Shown here: positions 1-45,014 of the stretch, in pieces
Numbering within the stretch: position 1 is the stretch's first letter
Layout of the letters: each line of letters opens with the position of its first letter
Source of the DNA: a virus
DNA: 45,014 bases
IMG/VR virus record: IMGVR_UViG_3300045988_020332
Direction: 5' to 3' (one strand)
The notes under the pieces: generated by a model
Database searches by the model: none
Told to the model about the DNA's origin: nothing
What the model saw: only the letters and a program-made list of their open reading frames with translations
Program-made: the position numbers and the translations under genes

Positions 1-99
1 AAAAAAATATACACCGCAACGGAAACTCACTTGATTAAACCAATGGAATACACCGCAACAAAAGCAGTAACGTATATTTGGGTGCAATACAAAAAAAAT
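1..99. repeat. Terminal direct repeat copy 1, identical to 44916..45014 (circular assembly overlap)
   Basis: Read directly: AAAAAAATATACACCGCAACGG...GGTGCAATACAAAAAAAAT occurs at both window ends. Confidence 0.95.
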
Positions 100-783
100 G
101 ATGGAATTAAAGCGACCGTATCAACAAATACGGATGAGATTTATAACAGCAGTGCAATCAGTCAATTATCTTTATTAAGATATAGATTTTCTAGTGCTAT
201 TTGCGTGGGGGATAGCTTGACAGTCGGAAAACAACCTGATGATACAAGTCGAGATAATTACCCATTGTATTTAAGCAGAATGACAGGGATGAAAATAACA
301 AATGCGGGTCAGAGTGGAGCAACAGCAAAAGCATGGTGGGATAATTGGCAGACAACATACAGTTATGCAGATTATGATTGTGCTTTTATCTGCCTAGGTA
401 CAAATGGTGGGGTTGTAAAAGATAGTGATAATTACAATGCGTATATTTCTATAATTGACAAAATGCAAGCAGATAATCCAAATATTGCTATTTTCCTTTT
501 AGACTGTGTCGGTAATAACTCAGATGGAACAGATGCAAATGAAATCATTAAAGGGATTGCAGATGCAAAAGGGATAGATATGCTTAATGTCTTTTTGAAT
601 GATAAGATTTGGTTAGCTGGCGTAAATGGACAAGCACAAAGTCCTACTCACGATATGAAAGGAGACCCTACGCATTTAAGTCCTATGGGTTATTTGTTAC
701 TTGCAAACAATGTTGTTCACGAAATGTGCAGGGTTATGTTTGAAAATATGGATAATTACAATCAGAGATTTACGCCAAGTTAA
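1..783 (+). CDS. C-terminal part of the same protein: SGNH/GDSL hydrolase (esterase) domain
   Basis: All four SGNH blocks are readable: ICVGDSLTVG (GDS at 208..216), NAGQSGAT, ICLGTNGG, GDPTHLSPMGY (DxxH). The frame is continuous with 44064..45014 through the 99-nt overlap. Confidence 0.8.
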   Translation, partial: KKIYTATETHLIKPMEYTATKAVTYIWVQYKKNDGIKATVSTNTDEIYNSSAISQLSLLRYRFSSAICVGDSLTVGKQPDDTSRDNYPLYLSRMTGMKITNAGQSGATAKAWWDNWQTTYSYADYDCAFICLGTNGGVVKDSDNYNAYISIIDKMQADNPNIAIFLLDCVGNNSDGTDANEIIKGIADAKGIDMLNVFLNDKIWLAGVNGQAQSPTHDMKGDPTHLSPMGYLLLANNVVHEMCRVMFENMDNYNQRFTPS

Positions 784-3843: not shown

Positions 3844-4623
3844 ATGGATGGAAATTATAGCTTAGCAGATATTGCCGCTGCTACTGGAAACGGTAGAAAT
3901 AATGATGGTATGTTTGGCGGAGATGGTGCATGGTGGCTTATCGTGCTTTTCTTATTCGTATTCTGCGGATGGGGAAACAACGGCTGGGGAAATAATGGCA
4001 ATGGAGGCGGATATGCAGCCACAGCAGCTACTCAGGCAGACATTCAGAGAGGATTCGATAATTCCGCAGTAATCAGCAAGCTTGATGGAATCAATAACGG
4101 TCTCTGTGATGGATTTTACGCAGTGAACAACGGTATGCTTACCGGTTTTAATGGAATCAATACAAACATCATGCAGACTGGATTTGGAATCCAGCAGGCA
4201 ATCAATGCCGATACTGTAGCAAATATGCAGAACACCAGCGCATTGCAGTCTCAGTTAGCTCAGTGTTGCTGCGACAACAGGGCGGGACAGGCACAGATCA
4301 GATATGATATGGCTACCAACGCCTGTGCAATCCAGAACACCATGAACAACAACACAAGAGACATTATTGACAGTCAGAATGCAGGAACAAGAGCAATTCT
4401 TGATTATCTTTGCAATGAAAAGATTTCTTCTCTTCAGGCTGAAAACAATGATCTCAGACGTGCTGCTTCTCAGGATCGCCAGAGTGCACTTCTCACAACT
4501 GCAATGGCTTCACAGACACAGCAGCTCATTAATGCGATCAATCCAGCACCGATTCCGGCATATCAGGTTCCTAATCCGAACACATTTTACGGATGCGGAT
4601 GCAACACTGGATGCAATTGCTGA
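3844..4623 (+). CDS. Asn/Gln/Cys-rich membrane-anchored hypothetical protein
   Basis: RBS AAAGGAG. TM helix WWLIVLFLFVFCGW followed by GNNGWGNNGNGGG. 36 Asn in 259 aa by my count. CCC triplet and C-terminal GCGCNTGCNC. Confidence 0.65.
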   Translation: MDGNYSLADIAAATGNGRNNDGMFGGDGAWWLIVLFLFVFCGWGNNGWGNNGNGGGYAATAATQADIQRGFDNSAVISKLDGINNGLCDGFYAVNNGMLTGFNGINTNIMQTGFGIQQAINADTVANMQNTSALQSQLAQCCCDNRAGQAQIRYDMATNACAIQNTMNNNTRDIIDSQNAGTRAILDYLCNEKISSLQAENNDLRRAASQDRQSALLTTAMASQTQQLINAINPAPIPAYQVPNPNTFYGCGCNTGCNC

Positions 4624-4687
4624 TAACTTCATATCGAGAGTATCTTTCGATTGATTCGAATGTCGGCTTATGCCGTATTACACAGAG

Positions 4688-4711
4688 GGGCAGGCTGAGA
4701 CCTGTCCTTTT
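4688..4711 (+). terminator. Hairpin plus short T-run (weak terminator or attenuator)
   Basis: GGGCAGG / CCTGTCC (one G-U pair), 6-nt loop, then TTTT. Confidence 0.45.
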
Positions 4712-4734
4712 GTGATACGAAAGGAGTATTTTTT

Positions 4735-5157
4735 ATGGCAGAATTTACAAATGTAGCTGCTCAGACTGTAGCAGCAAATGGAAACGTAGTATTTTCAAAC
4801 ACAGCAGTTAAAGGTTCTAACTGTATTCAGCACAGAGAGGGAAGCGGAATCATCACCCTGAGAGGACTTACTAACCAGTGCAAAGCGAGATTCTTCGTGG
4901 ATTTTTCTGGTAATATCGCAATTCCAACAGGCGGCACTGTCGGAGCTATTTCTCTGGCTATTGCAATTTCTGGTGAGCCGGTTCTTTCTTCACAGATGAT
5001 TTCCACACCGGCAGCAGTAGATCAGTATAACAATGTGTCCTCTGGTATCTATATTGACGTACCTCGCGGATGTTGCGTTAATATCGCAGTAGAGAACACA
5101 AGCGATCAGGATGTTTCTGTTGCGAACGCAAACATTGTTGTGACTAGAGAAGCGTAG
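4735..5157 (+). CDS. Hypothetical beta-rich protein, possibly a TNF/C1q-like jelly-roll as in BclA-type exosporium C-terminal domains
   Basis: RBS GAAAGGAG. Alternating beta-strand pattern (IITLRG, ARFFVDFSGNIAIP, ISLAIAISGE, VNIAVEN, ANANIVVTR). The family assignment is from memory only. Confidence 0.35.
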   Translation: MAEFTNVAAQTVAANGNVVFSNTAVKGSNCIQHREGSGIITLRGLTNQCKARFFVDFSGNIAIPTGGTVGAISLAIAISGEPVLSSQMISTPAAVDQYNNVSSGIYIDVPRGCCVNIAVENTSDQDVSVANANIVVTREA

Positions 5158-5168
5158 GAGGTGCAGTT

Positions 5169-5723
5169 ATGAGAGATATTAAAGACTTATGTGCAAGAAT
5201 TGAAGACGAACTGTCCAAAATCGCTGACAATGGACTGACCACCGGAAATCTGGAAATGACATACAAACTGATTGATATGTACAAAGATATCAAGAATACG
5301 TATTACTGGGACAAGAAAGTGGAGTACTACAACACTGTCCTTAATGAGATGCGTGGCGGATACAATGACGATTACAGCGAACGTGGAAGAAAGCGTGACA
5401 GCATGGGGAGATACAGCGCAAATGACGGTAGAATGATGCCGGATTACGACAGAGGCAGTTCTTACGCCAGACGTGGTGAGCATTATGTCAGAGGGCATTA
5501 CAGCCGCTCTGACGGACGAGATGCTTATGACGACTATATGACACAGAAACAGAGCTATCGTTCTGGCAAGTCTGAGGACTGCAAAAGGAAGATGCTTGCC
5601 GCATTGGAAGAACACCTTGACGAACTCACAACGGAAATGAGTGATATGTCCAAGGACGCAGAGTGCCGGGAGGAACGTGATCTTGTTAAAAGATACGTGG
5701 AAAAGCTCCGGGACATGCTCTAA
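5169..5723 (+). CDS. Hypothetical protein with helical ends and a Arg/Asp/Tyr/Gly/Ser-rich low-complexity centre
   Basis: RBS GGAGGTG. Centre: RGRKRDSMGRYSANDGRMMPDYDRGSSYARRGEHYVRGHYSRSDGRDAYDDY. Confidence 0.55.
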   Translation: MRDIKDLCARIEDELSKIADNGLTTGNLEMTYKLIDMYKDIKNTYYWDKKVEYYNTVLNEMRGGYNDDYSERGRKRDSMGRYSANDGRMMPDYDRGSSYARRGEHYVRGHYSRSDGRDAYDDYMTQKQSYRSGKSEDCKRKMLAALEEHLDELTTEMSDMSKDAECREERDLVKRYVEKLRDML

Positions 5724-5730
5724 TTGGCTA

Positions 5731-5770
5731 AAACATGTACCACAACTTTTTAAAGGGTCTGTGGTAAAAT
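5731..5770 (+). promoter_or_regulatory. Late-promoter-like element copy 2: box AAACATGTACCACAACTTTT, 11 nt, TGGTAAAAT
   Basis: The 20-mer is identical to 40591..40610, with the same spacing to an extended -10. Intergenic, upstream of the leader, tRNA and scaffold. Confidence 0.6.
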
Positions 5771-6090
5771 GTATTCATAAGGAAGATTCGTAAGTGGTTG
5801 ATACTACTTGACATAGACATTTTTTCATTGACTCCTCCTTTCTTGGGTGCGTGTCCTTAATAGAAACAGGTTTGGACGGAATCTGGAGGTTGAAAAGCGG
5901 ACGCAATTTCCGACACGTACCATTGCCGTTAGTGCATGACGGCATACCTCCTTGTGAGCATATAACTGAATAGTGGAATCCAACCCGTGCAGAGGTGTGC
6001 GACCGTATAGGCGGTGTTGACGTAGCCCGAAACGTCTCGTGTTTAGGCATAGCACGTAAAATACCTTGCTAACCCGGGAATCCGGGTTAA

Positions 6091-6163
6091 TGGGATATAG
6101 CTCAGTTGGTAGAGCATCTGACTGTTAATCAGAGTGTCACAGGTTCGATTCCTGTTATTCCAG
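6091..6163 (+). tRNA. tRNA-Asn: tRNA-Asn (anticodon GTT), 73 nt, CCA not encoded
   Basis: Folded by hand. Acceptor TGGGATA/TATTCCA (one G-U pair), D arm GCTC-AGTTGGTA-GAGC, anticodon arm TCTGA-CTGTTAA-TCAGA, variable GTGTC, T arm ACAGG-TTCGATT-CCTGT, discriminator G. Confidence 0.9.
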
Positions 6164-6241
6164 CTACCCTGCCAGTGGTCTAACTGGCTTAATCCACTTA
6201 CCTGCGGCGGCAGGTCAATAAACACGACCAGGAGGATATAT

Positions 6242-21180: not shown

Positions 21181-21475
21181 ATTGTATTGCATCAAATTCG
21201 GAATGATAAGAATTTTCTGGTTAGTCACATGTTGGTCACAAATAAATTGTTGGAATCCGCATAAATACGGCATTCTTACCTACTTTGCCTTTTCTAATGT
21301 AAATATTTTTACAACCTTCGCAAAGACGCATAAATACTGAAAAATGTTGATTTTATGCGGGCTTACGGGCTCTATATAGACATGTTTTGGTAAAATAAAA
21401 ATGTCTTAAAAAGGAACGGTTAGTCACAGTTAGTCACAAATGGTTACTTTAACTATTTGCCGTTGGTCACAAAAG
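21181..21475. repeat. Putative attP region with arm-type integrase-binding repeats
   Basis: GGTTAGTCACA at 21219 and 21418. GTTAGTCACAAA at 21429. GTTGGTCACAAA at 21231 and 21462. 9-bp inverted repeat CCGCATAAA (21257) / TTTATGCGG (21352) flanks an AT-rich core. Confidence 0.6.
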
Positions 21476-22631
21476 GAACTTTTATCTTTTTAATCTCTGA
21501 CCGGAGTTCTTCTAGGGTTCTGTGACCGTATACAGCGTTCGTGACATCGTTCCCAAACGAATGTCCCAACATCCTCTTCCGGTCGTTCTCCCGGACGCCA
21601 TATTTTTCACATAAAGCAGAGAATGTATGTCGGCAATCATGCGGTGTATGCTTTGGGTTTCCGACTATTCCTAATTTCTCCAATATTGGATAGAAACGAA
21701 ACATTCTGTAAGTGACTTTATTCATATTCAGTAGAGTTCCATCAGTATCAATTCTTGATTTGACAAAGTTGTAAATACATGGATGGATAGGAACGATCCT
21801 GTCTTTGCCGGCTTTTGTTTTTGAACCACCTTGGAAATATCTTTTGTCCAGATTAACTTCCAGATTTTCAAGCTCTCCAATTCTCCAACCAGAATAGCAC
21901 ATGATCAGAATAAGTTGTACATCAGTGTCTGCTGAATTTTTCCATAGGATCTTCAATTCCTGCTCAGAAAAAGCAGTGCCATGCTCAGTGTCATCCTCTT
22001 TGTTTATCTTGACAAATTTAGATTTGTTTTCTGAAACGATCTCAGCGTATATTGCGTATTTATACATCTGGTTAAAAAGTACCAGTATTGCTTTCAGGCT
22101 TCCTTTTTTCAGTCCTTTTTGATTGTCAATGAATTCCTGCAGATTTGTAGCTTTTAAATCTTCGAAAGGTTTGTTATATAATGTCGTGCAATACGAATAG
22201 GCTGCCGAGTAGTTTGATTTCGTTGCTTTCGAGTAATTCGTTCCTTCGGCGAACTTCCATGCCATAAATCGTTCATATACCTCTGCAAACGTTAATTTCT
22301 TAATCTCTGGATCTTTGCCCTCTACTCCTTTTATCGTTCCGTAATCAGCCAATATGCGTGTCACAAGGGTATCTGTGTCGGTAGTAGGCGATACTGGTAA
22401 GTCATTCTCCATCCCGGGCTTGTACGTTCCGGCTTTGCAGGCGGTCAAAACAGCGAAGCCTTTCAGCCAGTCATCAACGTAGCAGATCGCAGGCGGACGG
22501 ACTGCTTTTCCTGTTGTGTCCAGTGTAGCTGGCGGATGCACAGCATAACAATTCCTCCGATTCTTGCCAAGATAACGGATGCTCCCGAATCCGTTTGGCA
22601 ATTTTGGATAAGTTTTTCTTTTCTTCGGCAT
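21453..22631 (-). CDS. int: Tyrosine integrase
   Basis: C-terminal catalytic motifs HDCRHTF, LGHS and VYGHRT. AAGGAGGG RBS 7 nt before ATG at 22631. Confidence 0.9.
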   Translation of the reverse strand: MPKKRKTYPKLPNGFGSIRYLGKNRRNCYAVHPPATLDTTGKAVRPPAICYVDDWLKGFAVLTACKAGTYKPGMENDLPVSPTTDTDTLVTRILADYGTIKGVEGKDPEIKKLTFAEVYERFMAWKFAEGTNYSKATKSNYSAAYSYCTTLYNKPFEDLKATNLQEFIDNQKGLKKGSLKAILVLFNQMYKYAIYAEIVSENKSKFVKINKEDDTEHGTAFSEQELKILWKNSADTDVQLILIMCYSGWRIGELENLEVNLDKRYFQGGSKTKAGKDRIVPIHPCIYNFVKSRIDTDGTLLNMNKVTYRMFRFYPILEKLGIVGNPKHTPHDCRHTFSALCEKYGVRENDRKRMLGHSFGNDVTNAVYGHRTLEELRSEIKKIKVPFVTNGK

Positions 22632-22754
22632 GGTATTTCCCTCCTTGAATGTGAACAAATTTTCTGGATTGCTCAAAAATACCGAAGATGATACAATATA
22701 ATCCGGTCAAAGAACATATATCAATATCATCTTGGTTGTGTTCTCATTTACGAA

Positions 22755-22790
22755 AACCGGTTCCCGTTGGTAGCGAGAGCCGGTTCTTTT
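22755..22790 (-). terminator. Hairpin terminator (T-runs on both strands)
   Basis: AACCGGTTC / GAGCCGGTT stem (one G-U pair), with TTTT on either strand. Confidence 0.6.
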
Positions 22791-22796
22791 TAGTAT

Positions 22797-23351
22797 TTAT
22801 TCTATTTCTGTAATATCAAAAGAATATCCAAGGACTTCTCCGACATCTGTGCATTTTCCTTTTAATGTAACTGTATCGCCTTTTGTAAGAGCGGATATTT
22901 TTGCCTTCTGGTCATCATTTTTAATGTAACACTGGACGCCAATGATTTCAAAGTCTCCATCGGCCATGAGATCAATATATTTTCCGCCTGCATCAATATT
23001 TGTGAGTTTTCCAGTAATCTCAAGGTATTTGCCTTTGTATTTGTCAGATGCTCCCATAGCGTTATTATTAAGGGCATCCATCATGTCATTTACAGATACA
23101 GATGTATATTCGATTGACTCAGATTCCTGTTTCTGACTGTCTGAAGCAGTTGCCTCTGTTTGTTTTGTCGTACTATCAGCGGATTTGTCTTCGCCTGTGA
23201 CAGCACCGATAACCACTCCTATGATAAGTATTAATACAACCCATTTTAATATTCCGCTTTTTTGTTTCTTTCTGCAATGTGGACATATTTTTGCATCTTT
23301 TGGAATGTCCATCTTGCAATGTTTGCATTTCTTTGTTTTTTCTTCGCTCAT
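22797..23351 (-). CDS. Zinc-ribbon, TM helix and OB-fold (tRNA_anti-like) membrane protein
   Basis: CKHC...CPHC at the N-terminus, TM helix WVVLILIIGVVIGAV, C-terminal YKGKYLEITGKL...TKGDTVTLKGKC pattern. Confidence 0.65.
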   Translation of the reverse strand: MSEEKTKKCKHCKMDIPKDAKICPHCRKKQKSGILKWVVLILIIGVVIGAVTGEDKSADSTTKQTEATASDSQKQESESIEYTSVSVNDMMDALNNNAMGASDKYKGKYLEITGKLTNIDAGGKYIDLMADGDFEIIGVQCYIKNDDQKAKISALTKGDTVTLKGKCTDVGEVLGYSFDITEIE

Positions 23352-23354
23352 GCT

Positions 23355-24059
23355 TTATTTCCCTCCAATGACGTAGTTTTCATATTTTTCTCTTATTTTC
23401 GCAAGTTTTTTTTGCCTGATCGGGACGATCGCGCCAGATACCATCGTAAAAAAATGGCTTACTTCGATTACCTCGTCCATATTAACTATATAGCTCTGGT
23501 GGCAGCGCAAAAATCTTCCGTCAAGATTCTTCTCAATATCATTGAGCTTTCCTCGTTCCTTGTGTGATATTCCGCACGTGCAATGGATGATTATGTATTT
23601 GTTCTGGCTTTCGATGTATTCAATATTCCGGAATTCAGCTCTGTGAAAGTAGTTCTTGTTCTTGATAGTAAGCGTTTTTTCACGGATATTTTCAAGCGTC
23701 TGTTCAACAACTGAATACATTCTTCCATGCTCAGAGCCTTTAATGATGTAATGAACCGGCAGCACATCAAGTGCATCAAATACATATTCTTTGCGTTCTG
23801 TCCAAAAAGTGATATTTCCATAGTATCCGATTTTTCTTAATCTTTTGGCAATCTCTATGCCATTTTCTCCGTTAATGGAGACATCAAGAATTATTATGTC
23901 ATACCATTCACCATCTGAAACATCGTCGATCAAAGGCTTTCCGCTGGTGTAGGTGGTTAATGTATATCCACCATCACCATGCTCTTTTAGATATCGGTCA
24001 ATGCTATTTTTGAAAATCTCAATCCGTAAATTATCATCGTCACAAATCGCAATTTTCAT
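23355..24059 (-). CDS. Orphan response regulator, receiver plus LytTR DNA-binding domain (AgrA/LytR class)
   Basis: MKIAICDDD, IIILDV and PVHYIIKG receiver motifs. C-terminal LytTR-like IEYIESQNKYIIIH...LRCHQSYIVN. Confidence 0.85.
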   Translation of the reverse strand: MKIAICDDDNLRIEIFKNSIDRYLKEHGDGGYTLTTYTSGKPLIDDVSDGEWYDIIILDVSINGENGIEIAKRLRKIGYYGNITFWTERKEYVFDALDVLPVHYIIKGSEHGRMYSVVEQTLENIREKTLTIKNKNYFHRAEFRNIEYIESQNKYIIIHCTCGISHKERGKLNDIEKNLDGRFLRCHQSYIVNMDEVIEVSHFFTMVSGAIVPIRQKKLAKIREKYENYVIGGK

Positions 24060-24127
24060 GTAAATCATTCCCTTGTAAACATTGTTTTCGCCATTTGCAA
24101 AAAAAAGTGTTTAAATATGTTATTTTT

Positions 24128-24156
24128 ATTATAGCATCGTTAAATTTAGTTGTAAA
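24128..24156 (-). promoter_or_regulatory. Sigma-A type promoter for the regulator operon
   Basis: On the - strand: TTTACA (24156..24151), 17-nt spacer, TATAAT (24133..24128). Confidence 0.65.
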
Positions 24157-24181
24157 TAGACGTTTTGAGGTGATTTATGAA

Positions 24182-24502
24182 ATGAAAATAATCAAAAATA
24201 TACTAATTATAATAGGAGCTGTGCTTTTGCTTAATTACATTGTTTATTTACCAATGTGTGTAGACGATTATATCCGTGAAGAGTCGGAAGTGTATTCTGT
24301 CCAAAATGCGTACAGATCTTCTACCCTACATAAGAATAGTGCCCATGAAATAAAGCAGACCATGCCGCCGTTTTTATTCGCCCTGCCACTAAACAGAAAA
24401 GACTATATCTTTGATGTTACGAATAATTTCTATGCAATCATAAACATATCGGTGTATATCTGGCAGTTGCCAAGGGCAAACATTAGTGATATAATGGCAT
24501 GA
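24182..24502 (+). CDS. Hypothetical N-terminally anchored membrane protein
   Basis: GAGGTGA RBS. MKIIKNILIIIGAVLLLNYIVYL signal-anchor. Confidence 0.45.
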   Translation: MKIIKNILIIIGAVLLLNYIVYLPMCVDDYIREESEVYSVQNAYRSSTLHKNSAHEIKQTMPPFLFALPLNRKDYIFDVTNNFYAIINISVYIWQLPRANISDIMA

Positions 24503-24584
24503 AACGAACTAATGTTCGGTTCTATTTCCCACAGCCGGACATATACTGTAGTGTAAGTAGTAGTTGCGACAGGGAGGGTTATTT

Positions 24585-24677
24585 ATGGACTATAAAGAAA
24601 AAATAATTAAACTTTTAGAAAAGATGGACTCCAGAAAATTAAAGATAATTTATCATTTTGTTCGTGGTATCTTATAA
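24585..24677 (+). CDS. 30-aa helical peptide (MDYKEKIIKLLEKMDSRKLKIIYHFVRGIL)
   Basis: GGGAGGG RBS 7 nt upstream. Ends at the bidirectional terminator. Below the ORF-track size cutoff. Confidence 0.4.
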   Translation: MDYKEKIIKLLEKMDSRKLKIIYHFVRGIL

Positions 24678-24680
24678 AAA

Positions 24681-24712
24681 GAGAGCAGGTGTTATTCCTG
24701 CTCTTTTTTGTT
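24681..24712. terminator. Bidirectional terminator shared by convergent genes
   Basis: GAGAGCAGG / CCTGCTCT stem with A-run upstream and T-run downstream. The repressor stop codon lies in the loop. Confidence 0.7.
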
Positions 24713-25087
24713 TTGAAGCAAATTTGCAATTTTTTCAAGTGTTTCCCAATCAGATTCATCTAATGATGAAAGCATGGCAATAAACCTTTTTTTGAACGTT
24801 TCAGATTCGTTTTCAAAAGTTCTTCCAACAAACTCGGAAATTTGAGCATCTCTTAAATCATCACATTCTTTATCGCCAGTCCCGTACATAAGCCATTCCA
24901 TATTAATTCCAAATTCTTTGCAAATCAGCTTATATATAGGTTCTTTCTGGTCAGGACGTTTCAATCTATCATATTCTATATTGACAATAGCGTTTTCGCT
25001 AGTGCCGAGAACCTCTCCGAATTTTCTTCGGGACATGTGATGTTCTTCTCTGATAGATCGGATCCTTTCTCCTATCGTTTCCAACAT
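24692..25087 (-). CDS. XRE-family CI-like repressor
   Basis: N-terminal HTH IRSIREEHHMSRRKFGEVLGTSENAIVNIEYD. AAAGGAGGAAC RBS before ATG at 25087. Divergent from the early promoter. Confidence 0.8.
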   Translation of the reverse strand: MLETIGERIRSIREEHHMSRRKFGEVLGTSENAIVNIEYDRLKRPDQKEPIYKLICKEFGINMEWLMYGTGDKECDDLRDAQISEFVGRTFENESETFKKRFIAMLSSLDESDWETLEKIANLLQNKKEQE

Positions 25088-25109
25088 TGTTCCTCCTTTC
25101 TTAATATGA

Positions 25110-25138
25110 AGTATACCATTATTACGCTTGTTGGTCAA
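25110..25138 (-). promoter_or_regulatory. Repressor promoter (PRM-like)
   Basis: On the - strand: TTGACC, 17-nt spacer, TATACT with an upstream TG. Confidence 0.6.
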
Positions 25139-25214
25139 CAAGAAAAATTGAAAATAATTTGATAAAACATGTTGACAAACAAGAATGTAAGTGCTATTAT
25201 TTGTTCATCAACAA
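25127..25214. promoter_or_regulatory. Operator palindromes of the form TTGTT-N4-AACAA
   Basis: CTTGTTGGTCAACAAG (25127..25142) and TTGTTCATCAACAA (25201..25214). A degenerate copy GTTGACAAACAAG overlaps the PR -35. Confidence 0.6.
25172..25200 (+). promoter_or_regulatory. Early rightward promoter (PR-like)
   Basis: TTGACA (25172..25177), 17-nt spacer, TATTAT (25195..25200). Confidence 0.65.
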
Positions 25215-25300
25215 AAACAAGGAGGTGAAAACAACGAGCCAAATAAAAAAGTTTTTCCACTGGTATTTTTTCGAGCCAAGGAAAACGTTGCTGGAATGGT

Positions 25301-26052: not shown

Positions 26053-26688
26053 ATGAAAAAATTCGAACTGACAGCAGAGTCAAAAATCAACATCTTTGGA
26101 AAGAAGCTTTTCCGTATCAAGGCGCTTATATCATTTGGAGATGTAGAAGAGGGAGAAACTGGTGGGTGGATTGAGAAAGAGGAAAACCTTGAACAGTCCT
26201 CCGGCGATGCATGGGTCTCCGGCGATGCAGAGGTCTCCGGCGATGCAAGGGTCTACGGCAATGCAAGGGTCTCCGGCGATGCAAGGGTCTCCGGCGATGC
26301 AGAGGTCTACGGCAATGCATGGGTCTCCGGCGATGCATGGGTCTACGGCAATGCAAGGGTCTCCGGCGATGCATGGGTCTACGGCAATGCAAGGGTCTAC
26401 GGCGATGCAGAGGTCTACGGCGATGCAAGGGTCTCCGGCGATGCAGAGGTCTACGGCAATGCAGACTATACAACCATTCATGGTTTCGGCACTCAGTTCC
26501 GTACAACTACATTCTTTCAGTGCGAAGATAAGCAGATCAGAGTATCTTGCGGTTGTTTCTTAGGAACAATTCCAGAGTTCCGCGAACAGGTAAAAAATAC
26601 CAGAGAGGGCAAAATTGTGGAAGAGTACCTTATGATTGCCGACCTGATGGAAAAGCATTTTGTAAAAGAAAAAGAAAGTGGTGAATAA
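26053..26688 (+). CDS. Hexapeptide-repeat (predicted beta-helix) protein with a Cys-containing C-terminal domain
   Basis: AAGGAGG RBS. 14 full units of [S/Y]G[D/N]A[W/E/R]V plus a partial unit. Confidence 0.8.
   Translation: MKKFELTAESKINIFGKKLFRIKALISFGDVEEGETGGWIEKEENLEQSSGDAWVSGDAEVSGDARVYGNARVSGDARVSGDAEVYGNAWVSGDAWVYGNARVSGDAWVYGNARVYGDAEVYGDARVSGDAEVYGNADYTTIHGFGTQFRTTTFFQCEDKQIRVSCGCFLGTIPEFREQVKNTREGKIVEEYLMIADLMEKHFVKEKESGE
26200..26463 (+). repeat. Perfect-phase 18-bp tandem repeat, 14.7 copies
   Basis: Unit T[C/A]CGGC[G/A]ATGCA[TGG/GAG/AGG]GTC. All other positions are invariant, including synonymous sites. Confidence 0.95.
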
Positions 26689-27026: not shown

Positions 27027-27162
27027 GTGCCCCGGAGGGAGCTGAAACCTCCACCCCGGAGCTTTGAACCCACTAAAATACCTTAGTGGATAGATACATT
27101 ATAGTTCTCTATCTGCTAATTGTAAAGACAAATAAGAAAAAATAAGGAGAAATTAGCTAGAT

Positions 27163-37158: not shown

Positions 37159-37422
37159 ATGAAGTTAATTGAATTATTAGAGGCAATTGATTTTGATAAC
37201 GTCGAAAGCGGCATAAAAGTCCAGATATGTCACCCAAGAAGAAGTTTGGAAGATTACGATACATCCTGGGAGGATTACGATACATTCAACGCCGGTTCAG
37301 AATTTCTGAAACCATTTTACGATTTAAGGGTTGAATCTTTATCTGCAATAAACACAGATGTGATTAGAGTTGACTTGGATTTCAATGAGAAAGAGGGTGA
37401 AGTAGATGAGCAGACTGATTGA
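37159..37422 (+). CDS. Strongly acidic small protein
   Basis: 23 Asp+Glu against 8 Lys+Arg in 87 aa (hand count). Internal EDYDT duplication. Confidence 0.55.
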   Translation: MKLIELLEAIDFDNVESGIKVQICHPRRSLEDYDTSWEDYDTFNAGSEFLKPFYDLRVESLSAINTDVIRVDLDFNEKEGEVDEQTD

Positions 37423-40576: not shown

Positions 40577-40590
40577 ACGCAAAATTCATC

Positions 40591-40630
40591 AAACATGTAC
40601 CACAACTTTTCCGCTGACCTGTGATAGAAT
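40591..40630 (+). promoter_or_regulatory. Late-promoter-like element copy 3: box AAACATGTACCACAACTTTT, 11 nt, TGATAGAAT
   Basis: The 20-mer is identical to 5731..5750. Lies between the terminator and terS. Confidence 0.6.
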
Positions 40631-44071: not shown

Positions 44072-45014
44072 TGTATTTAAGGGAATAATCACAGCAGATG
44101 GAAAGAAAAGGCAGCTACCTTACGATGCAGTGTTGGACAGGCCAGTTTCTGATAAAACGTTATCTGAAGAGGGCGGCTTTGCGGATGCTAAAGTGGTAGG
44201 GGACAATTTCAAAAAAACAAAGGCAGAAACTGATTCACTGAAGGAAGATTTAGACGATATAGGAACGTTTACAAAATCACCCAATCTAGTAAACCCATCA
44301 GAGCTTAGACACGATTATTCTATTGGTAGTGACGGAAATCCTGTGGCAAGTGACGGACTTGTGATAACAGGGAAAATCAAAGTAGACAAGTCTATTCAGT
44401 ATGTGAGCAAGCATAATATTTTTTATAATTTATACTTGTATGATAACGATAATTTTGTAGGACAAATAAACACATACAAACAGTATAACAACGGATTTTT
44501 AATAGACTTGCCATCTATCAGCACTAATTTTGATAGTGTTATTATTTGTTATAAATATTCTGAAATGACAGAGCCATATTACTTTGGCAGTAAGGATGAT
44601 TTCGATGCCTATGGATTCGTGGAATACTATGACAAATTTGTTTTCGGAGAAAAAACACATGGCTCAGTAGATGAAAATATGCTCTCTGATGAAATAAAGG
44701 AAAAATTAAACAATGATGAAGAGGTCAACTTATTGCCATATGAAACTATTAAAGGAGTAGTTAATTGGAATGGAAAAATTGGCTCTATAGACGGTTTTAA
44801 TATTGCCAAGTTTAAATTGGCAATCGGTCAGCATATAAAAGTATATTGTAATCCAGTTACAGGCGATACATCACATGTTGCAATGGGAGAATATTTCTAC
44901 AATAATACTATTCTCAAAAAAATATACACCGCAACGGAAACTCACTTGATTAAACCAATGGAATACACCGCAACAAAAGCAGTAACGTATATTTGGGTGC
45001 AATACAAAAAAAAT
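44064..45014 (+). CDS. N-terminal part of the junction-spanning protein (about 544 aa in total). The N-terminus looks like a fibre or tail-associated protein. This ORF is absent from the supplied ORF track.
   Basis: ATG at 44064 overlaps the previous stop (ATGACTGA). The frame is open for 317 codons to the window end and continues in frame at nt 100 (frame of ORF 31..783). N-terminal motif: LPYDAVLDRPVSDKTLSEEGGFADAKVVGDNF. Confidence 0.8.
   Translation, partial: MTDVFKGIITADGKKRQLPYDAVLDRPVSDKTLSEEGGFADAKVVGDNFKKTKAETDSLKEDLDDIGTFTKSPNLVNPSELRHDYSIGSDGNPVASDGLVITGKIKVDKSIQYVSKHNIFYNLYLYDNDNFVGQINTYKQYNNGFLIDLPSISTNFDSVIICYKYSEMTEPYYFGSKDDFDAYGFVEYYDKFVFGEKTHGSVDENMLSDEIKEKLNNDEEVNLLPYETIKGVVNWNGKIGSIDGFNIAKFKLAIGQHIKVYCNPVTGDTSHVAMGEYFYNNTILKKIYTATETHLIKPMEYTATKAVTYIWVQYKKN
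44916..45014. repeat. Terminal direct repeat copy 2, identical to 1..99
   Basis: Same 99-nt string as the window start. Confidence 0.95.

Follow-up and report, generated by a model that had tools for sequence, protein, structure and literature searches.

The complete temperate phage genome held as IMG/VR record IMGVR_UViG_3300045988_020332 (45,014 nucleotides; the whole stretch is called the window below) carries in its lysogeny region a gene for a response regulator (RR) that joins a receiver domain to a LytTR DNA-binding domain and that is kinase-less in this complete genome. The window is a circularly assembled genome: an exact 99-nt terminal repeat (1-99 = 44916-45014) represents an assembly overlap and closes the genome at 44,915 bp. 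The host group is human-gut Blautia, where the phage is very common. The + strand carries the structural, packaging and lysis genes (terminase, portal, scaffold, minor capsid proteins, CHAP-SH3 lysin), and the - strand a lysogeny block of integrase, a zinc-ribbon/transmembrane (TM)/OB-fold gene, RR and CI-like repressor; two small + strand genes, for a 106-aa protein and a 30-aa open reading frame (ORF), lie between RR and CI. An earlier note on this DNA, made from the letters alone, had placed the RR in the lysogeny module. It does lie between integrase and CI-like repressor, and every checkable detail of that note's sequence description proved correct. The features of the region are as follows.

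21453..22676, - strand: tyrosine integrase (Pfam Phage_integrase), at the boundary of the lysogeny module
22750..22787, - strand: hairpin terminator at the end of the two-gene operon (fold -16.5 kcal/mol, z = -3.1)
22797..23351, - strand: predicted superinfection-exclusion-like (Sie-like) cargo gene, with zinc ribbon, one TM helix and OB fold of tRNA_anti-like type (Pfam, phrog_8545)
23355..24059, - strand: response regulator of 234 aa, receiver (REC) plus LytTR (Pfam, conservation, AlphaFold model, phrog_8810)
24060..24127, - strand: putative RR 5′ untranslated region (UTR), with a conserved block and the ribosome-binding site (RBS) AAGGGA (alignment)
24128..24156, - strand: promoter of the RR operon (-35 TTTACA at 24156-24151, 17-nt spacer, TGc extended -10 TATAAT at 24133-24128)
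24182..24502, + strand: divergent small membrane-anchored protein of 106 aa, MKIIKN... (RBS GAGGTG)
24585..24677, + strand: 30-aa ORF (11/12 extended -10 promoter at 24467-24495, strong RBS)
24692..25141, - strand: CI-like helix-turn-helix (HTH) repressor (Pfam HTH_19/HTH_3; PHROG repressor families)
25127..25217, no strand: three palindromic operators of the type CTTGTTGgtCAACAAG, between the divergent CI promoter and early promoter

The regulator and its operon

Domain content and active-site residues make it very probable that the RR is a structurally complete, phosphorylation-competent regulator of the AgrA/ComE type. Pfam finds both Response_reg (3.6e-10) and LytTR (9.8e-15) in the one ORF, in agreement with the fusion that the earlier note described. 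The ORF as listed spans 23355..24068(-), with its stop TAA at 23355-23357; the true start is most likely the ATG at 24059 (MKIAICDDD, 234 aa) and not 24068, because homologues are 234 aa long, 9 nt separate it from the AAGGGA RBS, and the clade of relatives at 68% identity lacks the upstream ATG. The CDDD, ILDV and IIKG motifs from which an intact receiver had been read are present, and across 98 full-length homologues the pocket residues are kept in 87-99% of sequences: D7 in 97/98, D8 as 89 D and 6 E, T87 as 85 T and 7 S, and K107 as 95 K. The phospho-acceptor aspartate, whose presence the earlier note had asked to see on alignment, is D59 in 91 of the 98. In the LytTR half the motif FLRCHQSYIVN is invariant or nearly so. 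An AlphaFold (AF2) model built from 71 sequences has a mean pLDDT of 91.5, with the predicted (beta-alpha)5 receiver fold above 90; its best match in the PDB is full-length ComE (4CBV, 6e-15), and the C-terminal domain of the model fits the LytTR domain of AgrA (4XQJ) with TM 0.85 at 1.5 Å.

Both domains are under purifying selection. Among close viral relatives the whole RR has a dN/dS of 0.14, its receiver 0.115 and its LytTR half 0.183, and the RR is intact in 79/81 loci, that is, in all but two. The conservation of the pocket across the clade, together with the low value for the receiver, argues that the phosphorylation chemistry is probably in use. Damaged copies are also on record: at least seven independent frameshifted alleles (P0033, P0043, P0049, P0052, P0054, P0056, P0059) all enter a single alternative frame, which corresponds to window ORF 23591-23821, and in P0044 and P0060 a CI-type HTH N-terminus is fused to the C-terminal part of the RR, as a deletion between CI and RR would yield.

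The promoter that the earlier note assigned to the RR, TTTACA-17-TATAAT at 24156..24128(-), is near-consensus: it scores 11/12, has TG before the -10 and is the best match in a region where promoter-like matches are frequent (29, against 16.9 +/- 4.6 in shuffles). It is kept exactly in 70/74 close viral relatives and is identical in loci L001-L010, including clades whose RR is 53-68% identical to that of the window. The 5′ UTR contains a block, TTGCAAATGGCGAAAA (24085-24100), that is conserved in the alignment and occurs once in the genome. Only 3 nt separate the RR stop from the next ATG (23351), and the gene so reached is the zinc-ribbon/TM/OB-fold membrane protein of the earlier reading, followed as described there by a terminator and the integrase; the terminator hairpin, found also in L001, runs into UUUUCGU. 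The RR and the Sie-like gene form a two-gene unit with its own promoter and terminator. This unit displays the features of a phage accessory ('moron') operon – own promoter, terminator, mosaic flanks, occasional null alleles and a position in the lysogeny region – and we regard it as probable that it is expressed in lysogens and stands outside the immunity switch.

Distribution and inheritance of the cassette

Protein searches returned 293 relatives of the RR. Those that are 39-97% identical form one monophyletic clade in a neighbour-joining tree, and every context examined for these relatives, with the sole exception of L019, is the lysogeny region of a phage or prophage. The usual order is CI-like repressor, one or more small antisense genes, RR, membrane protein, and a tyrosine or serine recombinase; in some related phages the RR directly abuts a lysin gene. 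Within IMG/VR, 462 contigs carry an RR relative, the best 80 of which are 94-99% identical and mostly genomes of 43-46 kb. A 95%-identical RR is present in the cultured strain Blautia fusiformis CLA-AA-H217, and a 69%-identical one, annotated in Blautia obeum, is indexed in 1556 assembly blocks. L019 aside, the RR clade is restricted to phages, and it is very abundant. Phage RRs of this kind are therefore already on record, but they are uncharacterised: the RR matches phrog_8810 from end to end in a profile comparison (hidden Markov model, 6.9e-37), the PHROG label is 'unknown function', and a full-text literature search found no description of a phage response regulator of this type, which accords with the earlier note's remark that a kinase-less phage LytTR regulator is little explored.

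A critical issue is which parts of the locus are inherited together. The 80 viral loci aligned to the window are the best 80 of the 462 IMG/VR relatives and were chosen by RR similarity, so that part of the RR conservation among them follows from that choice; this does not apply to the divergent gene, conserved along with the RR, or to the contrast with the flanks on either side. The block 23300-24560 – RR, 120-bp intergenic region and divergent gene – is 95-99% identical in 75-80 of the 80 loci. On one side of it the cargo gene is 75-84% identical among the aligned loci, and the integrase shows 61-92% nucleotide identity in 57/80 and is replaced by serine recombinases in other relatives. On the other side the CI region is common to only 7/80, the immunity region being different in 73/80 phages whose RR is 94-99% identical. 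The RR and the divergent small protein have synonymous divergences of 0.078 and 0.072, the cargo one of 0.87; because the value leaps from 0.078 to 0.87 across a 3-nt gap, we place a recombination boundary at the RR stop. By this comparison a 1.25-kb cassette of RR, promoter region and divergent gene travels together among phages that differ in repressor, cargo and integrase.

The divergent gene (24182-24502) shows 97% nucleotide identity in 75/80 loci and a dN/dS of 0.31; it is present in L001-L010, L016 and L017, and its homologues are restricted to this phage group. Its 106-aa product has no Pfam, PHROG or PADLOC match. No acceptable sigma-70 promoter precedes the gene in either clade examined, and the sole candidate is a conserved, weak TTGCAA-17-TGTTAT at 24095-24123(+), back-to-back with the -10 of the RR. 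Such a weak divergent promoter would fit dependence on an activator, without being evidence for it.

The gene downstream of the RR follows a different course. Clades with a 53-68% identical RR keep the same divergent gene and promoter, and in them the cargo is different or missing: its replacements are a protein with two TM helices, a Gly-zipper and a SHOCT domain, a zinc-ribbon protein with several TM helices, or nothing at all. In the window the cargo matches tRNA_anti-like (Pfam, 7.5e-20), a weak N-terminal DZR zinc ribbon, and phrog_8545, 'superinfection exclusion Sie-like' (8.2e-20 over residues 28-167); a TM helix is predicted within H24-51, and a single-sequence AF2 model (pLDDT 71) has an OB fold like that of 3F1Z, a putative nucleic-acid-binding lipoprotein. 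Two deep alleles exist, with a dN/dS of 0.086. The downstream gene thus appears to be interchangeable membrane cargo, here predicted to be Sie-like. The idea that it might be a dedicated partner of the RR, in the manner of HdrM or BrsM, was dropped on finding unrelated membrane proteins, or nothing, in its place in relatives. PADLOC gave no meaningful match for RR, cargo or small membrane protein.

In L096, where the RR is 48% identical, a gene for an Mrr_cat nuclease (4511-5746) lies directly upstream of the RR; the nuclease resembles the nuclease domain of ZorD and type IV restriction enzymes. To judge from the gene families found there, the slot beside the RR collects defence-like genes.

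Phosphodonor and targets

The absence of a phage-encoded partner was examined at two levels. Pfam applied to the 30 window ORFs of at least 140 aa detected no HisKA, HATPase, Hpt, AgrB or ABC exporter, and profiles for Hpt, the minimal HisKA kinase, the hybrid kinase and AgrC-like kinases found no match among 293 six-frame ORFs of at least 40 aa. The kinase profiles performed as they should: with filters off, the receiver of the hybrid kinase matched the RR alone. Nor is a kinase present in the 12 related phage loci examined. The earlier note had claimed that the genome holds neither a kinase nor AgrB or AgrD; kinase and AgrB are indeed missing, whereas an AgrD-like small peptide is beyond the reach of these scans: the small ORFs near the RR (the 30-aa MDYK... 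and the 106-aa membrane protein) have no family matches, and a lone peptide precursor would escape. An intact RR without a phage kinase probably depends, therefore, on a signalling protein of the host.

The 30-aa ORF (MDYKEKIIKLLEKMDSRKLKIIYHFVRGIL) was considered as an AgrD-like signal linked to the RR and rejected: it varies with CI type (7/80 loci) and not with the RR, and belongs to no recognised family. It is convergent with CI, the two having a bidirectional terminator (24682-24704) in common, and peptides like it adjoin other CI types (L002, L008, L011).

Evidence on the nature of the donor comes from the company that relatives of the RR keep. One RR nested within the phage clade of the neighbour-joining tree, 47% identical to that of the window, belongs to L019, from an uncultured gut bacterium. 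Of all clade members it alone has a chromosomal, non-phage setting and a kinase beside it: a soluble 238-aa HisKA+HATPase_c kinase (L019 6688-7404), with neither sensor nor TM domain, is encoded 51 nt downstream of the RR on the same strand. Kinases of this minimal type (~240 aa) form a family with 2631 matches; the organism names include Limivivens, [Ruminococcus] lactaris, Roseburia hominis and Bariatricus, with no Blautia among them. In Limivivens and Roseburia hominis the kinase stands as an orphan within a conserved locus of Lachnospiraceae (L097-L101) comprising MurG, one or more sigma factors, HIT, the kinase, and DUF6382/FHA or Tad pilus genes; L019 has the phage-clade RR in place of the HIT gene, beside the resident orphan kinase.

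More distant cellular relatives (~30-40% identical, mainly Oscillospiraceae) lie for the most part in the order DUF6514 (divergent), RR, Hpt, and an Hpt phosphorelay is the commonest signalling context among them. At loci of this type (L013, L015, L021, L038, L183-L191 and others) there is also a convergent gene for a Spo0A_C-only protein and often a PAS-HisKA-HATPase-REC hybrid kinase. The DUF6514/REC-LytTR/Hpt arrangement looks like an undescribed LytTR phosphorelay. Kinases of the AgrC-like (HATPase_c_5) type accompany only Lachnospiraceae relatives at 28-35% identity. With a HisKA kinase beside the one chromosomal clade member, Hpt at more distant loci and AgrC-like partners confined to such low identities, the earlier note's suggestion of a host peptide-quorum-sensing (QS) kinase of agr, com or bacteriocin type is not supported, and we lean, tentatively and short of an even chance, towards a donor of HisKA/Hpt rather than Agr type.

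The targets of the RR are a second issue. The earlier note had proposed a search for LytTR-type direct repeats, 9 bp each and 12 bp apart, near 25100..25220 and at the late boxes. The elements at the former position are three palindromic operators, spaced 41 and 32 bp, that overlap the CI promoter at 25138..25110(-) and the early promoter at 25172..25200(+); by their arrangement, three palindromes between divergent promoters, they represent the classic CI/Cro layout and not LytTR sites. The late box (AAAACATGTACCACRACTTTT, 21 nt) occurs three times (817-837, 5730-5750, 40590-40610) as a single element before a -10, not as a repeat pair; two copies extend to 51 nt with a TGnTAnAAT-like -10, before late or packaging genes, and the box is probably a late-promoter element.

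Wider scans covered phage DNA only, and presupposed no particular recognition sequence. Over the whole window, 9-mers at a period of 20-22 with at most one mismatch gave 65 matches; the best, at 37248, is coding (a EDYDTSWEDYDT peptide repeat) and was set aside, the other whole-window matches being coding too. Intergenic 9-12-9 pairs numbered 33 with at most two mismatches (22.7 +/- 8.4 in shuffled sequence) and 4 with at most one (2.0 in shuffled sequence), the top pair, at 27147, proving to be an RBS and start codon. The motif GCGAAAWTR was derived from two sources: a repeat that precedes the L019 RR in three copies phased at 21 bp, and the conserved GGCGAAAA of the 5′ UTR of the window RR. 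It shows no enrichment, with 4 matches where 2.5 are expected; it was dropped as a site and is kept as a weak lead only.

Because the immunity region differs in 73/80 phages with a near-identical RR, the RR is not co-inherited with the switch. Near-identical RRs beside unrelated immunity regions imply in turn that a conserved phage target can lie only within the co-inherited block, and otherwise on the host chromosome. Palindromic operators, repeats at chance level and this lack of co-inheritance together speak against the earlier proposal that the RR times prophage induction.

The explanation that we prefer, while giving it somewhat less than an even chance, is a lysogen accessory operon whose orphan RR depends on the host. 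The two-gene unit would be a moron operon expressed in the lysogen and no part of the immunity switch. A phosphodonor of the host would switch its RR; in this role a peptide sensor of AgrC type is less plausible than acetyl phosphate or a donor of HisKA type, whether a soluble orphan kinase of small size or a hybrid kinase that supplies an Hpt relay. Once phosphorylated, the RR may act on the ~120-bp divergent promoter region shared with 24182-24502 – apparently the only phage DNA always to travel with the RR – or on host promoters (lysogenic conversion), or on both, while the downstream gene would be exchangeable membrane cargo, here superinfection-exclusion-like. A target in the operon's own divergent promoter region is, taken by itself, rather doubtful. 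Less likely again is a bolder version, in which the cassette is an 'eavesdropping' module, complete in itself and sweeping horizontally: through the RR alone many Blautia phages would tap a HisKA/Hpt phosphorelay of the host, and not peptide QS, and the phosphorylated RR would flip the divergent promoter pair, changing the surface of the lysogen, or feed into prophage or host physiology.

Several observations weigh against the host-dependent accessory operon. LytTR-type direct repeats are at chance level, genome-wide and in intergenic DNA, no binding site was found, and the conserved blocks close to the RR promoter are all single-copy. The phage clade has K107-G108 after beta5 in place of the usual K-P, so the phospho-switch may be atypical. 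The HisKA lead consists of one locus, a metagenome scan for a second RR–kinase pair of the L019 type having found none; the nearest Lachnospiraceae relatives, including one in Blautia schinkii, are paired with AgrC-like kinases, and Ruminococcus phage NatCom_29429 combines an RR and an AgrC-like kinase in one phage. Frameshifted RR alleles occur at low frequency in databases, and expression in lysogens is read from promoter and orientation only.

Competing explanations and known systems

The strongest competitor to the host-dependent operon, in our view unlikely, dispenses with a dedicated kinase: the RR would answer to acetyl phosphate or metabolic state, or be active unphosphorylated, and serve as a constitutive lysogenic-conversion factor acting on host genes. 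This would suit a promoter that is strong and constitutive-looking, the lack of any encoded partner, the failure to find target repeats in the phage and the clade-specific K-G for K-P, and orphan LytTR regulators do exist – CdtR of C. difficile is an example (PMC9882218). It sits poorly with an acidic pocket, T87 and K107 that are kept across the clade, with the receiver dN/dS of 0.115, and with L019, a clade member in an operon-like position with a kinase.

We give still less weight to the possibility that a host kinase of the AgrC, ComD or bacteriocin type (HPK10) phosphorylates the RR and so couples cell density to induction or rewires host LytTR regulons. The RR has the architecture and fold of ComE and AgrA; Lachnospiraceae relatives at 33-35% identity (L070, Blautia schinkii L079, Faecalicatena L082) adjoin HATPase_c_5 kinases, as does the RR of NatCom_29429; and phages with agrB, agrD and agrC but no agrA are known (PMC3901668; review PMC11945551). 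Yet the AgrC-paired relatives are the most distant in the tree, the sole kinase-adjacent member of the clade has a sensor-less HisKA kinase, LytTR repeats are found neither at the switch nor at the late boxes, and the RR is not co-inherited with the immunity region.

Prophage exclusion genes typically lie between repressor and integrase, as lactococcal sie does. That slot, the cargo's match to a Sie-like PHROG, the membrane nature of all cargo variants, the Mrr-like nuclease gene beside the RR in L096 and a divergent gene without a sigma-70 promoter would together suit a defence controller, in which the RR, by way of a host kinase, detects stress on the envelope or from infection and turns on membrane effectors of the prophage (the divergent small protein plus Sie-like, SHOCT or zinc-ribbon cargo) that protect the lysogen from superinfection. 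We think this improbable: PADLOC finds nothing for RR, cargo or small protein, a cargo gene on a constitutive promoter needs no induction, and some relatives lack cargo.

Less probable still is a phosphate sink, or decoy, in which an abundant receiver drains a host relay (for example of Hpt or sporulation type) and DNA binding is secondary. A strong promoter, cellular relatives in Hpt relays beside Spo0A_C-type proteins and the absence of phage targets from our scans are compatible with it; a LytTR domain that is intact, confidently predicted and under purifying selection (0.183) is not what it leads one to expect. That the RR is a passenger without current function, as the several independent frameshifted and truncated alleles in databases might hint, is barely credible given a dN/dS of 0.14, an RR intact in 79/81 loci, a promoter exact in 70/74, and intact alleles in clusters of hundreds to >1500 members as against 1-2 for each frameshifted allele.

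Comparison with known systems places the RR among AgrA/ComE/LytR-type regulators (PF00072 + PF04397), with which it shares two-domain architecture, fold and conserved phospho-pocket. It differs in being phage-borne, in having K-G for K-P and in lacking cognate kinase, peptide and exporter genes; no direct-repeat sites were found for it in the phage DNA scanned, and its identity to solved members is ~18-23%. Close parallels in other phages include the orphan RRs of the Clostridioides phages LIBA2945 and LIBA6276. The LIBA2945 gene encodes a 234-aa REC-LytTR protein that bears the annotation 'two-component response regulator', and the 5 kb to its left and right contain no kinase, just as the window contains none; however, it is 31% identical and lies among antirepressor genes of a 132-kb phage-plasmid-like genome, not beside an integrase. 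LIBA6276 likewise has a lone RR among antirepressor genes. The REC-LytTR protein of NatCom_29429, a human-gut phage like that of the window, is 26% identical and has its own HATPase_c_5 kinase immediately downstream.

The C. difficile phage phiCDHM1 carries agrB, agrD and agrC without agrA (PMC3901668). Here too an incomplete LytTR-type signalling system needs completion by the host, but as a mirror image: phiCDHM1 supplies signal and kinase without regulator, the window the regulator only, and what the window lacks is not evidently agr-like. CdtR is described (PMC9882218, citing Carter et al. 2007) as an orphan LytTR regulator activating adjacent toxin genes; compared at family level, it resembles the RR as a kinase-less REC-LytTR protein on an accessory locus, and it controls its neighbours, as the RR may do.

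The DUF6514/REC-LytTR/Hpt loci of Oscillospiraceae and relatives resemble the window in that a small gene is transcribed divergently from a position upstream of their RR. They are not phage-borne, however, and they possess a Spo0A_C-only protein, an Hpt gene that in many cases overlaps the stop of the RR, and often a hybrid HisKA kinase as well. The cargo shares with phrog_8545 Sie-like proteins its family, a membrane anchor and a place between integrase and repressor, and differs in its N-terminal zinc ribbon and in not being constant among RR phages. In the HdrRM and BrsRM systems of streptococci a LytTR regulator is co-transcribed with a membrane protein; those regulators have no receiver, and the membrane partner is a dedicated inhibitor. 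The RR of the window has an intact receiver, and the membrane protein downstream of it is interchangeable.

Most phage proteins that are known to read signals of bacteria are one-component QS receptors or peptide systems. A receiver regulator that takes its phosphate from a host donor would give prophages a different route to reading host physiology, and on the 'eavesdropping' reading phages would follow the two-component signalling of the host with no sensor gene of their own. Since the family is very common in prophages of gut Blautia, its function would apply to a large share of the lysogens of an abundant commensal; and since a carrier, B. fusiformis CLA-AA-H217, is in culture, the question is experimentally tractable. 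Should the RR prove an ordinary accessory regulator of a superinfection-exclusion operon, phrog_8810 would still gain a useful annotation. What is new here is a phage-restricted, abundant clade, a co-inherited 1.25-kb cassette, interchangeable cargo, decoupling from the immunity region and a HisKA/Hpt lead to the donor.

Elsewhere in the window a GDSL-like lipase/acylhydrolase gene at 31-783 (+) stands beside a minor capsid gene. An Rfam scan gave no match in the RR region; in the structural module, just downstream of one late-box copy, there are a RAGATH-21 RNA motif (RF03097, 90.8 bits) and a tRNA-Asn(GTT), at 5846-5921 (+) and 6091-6164 (+). In the early region, the protein encoded at 26053-26688 (+) has YdcK beta-solenoid repeats, with 14 tandem 18-nt units at 26145-26504.

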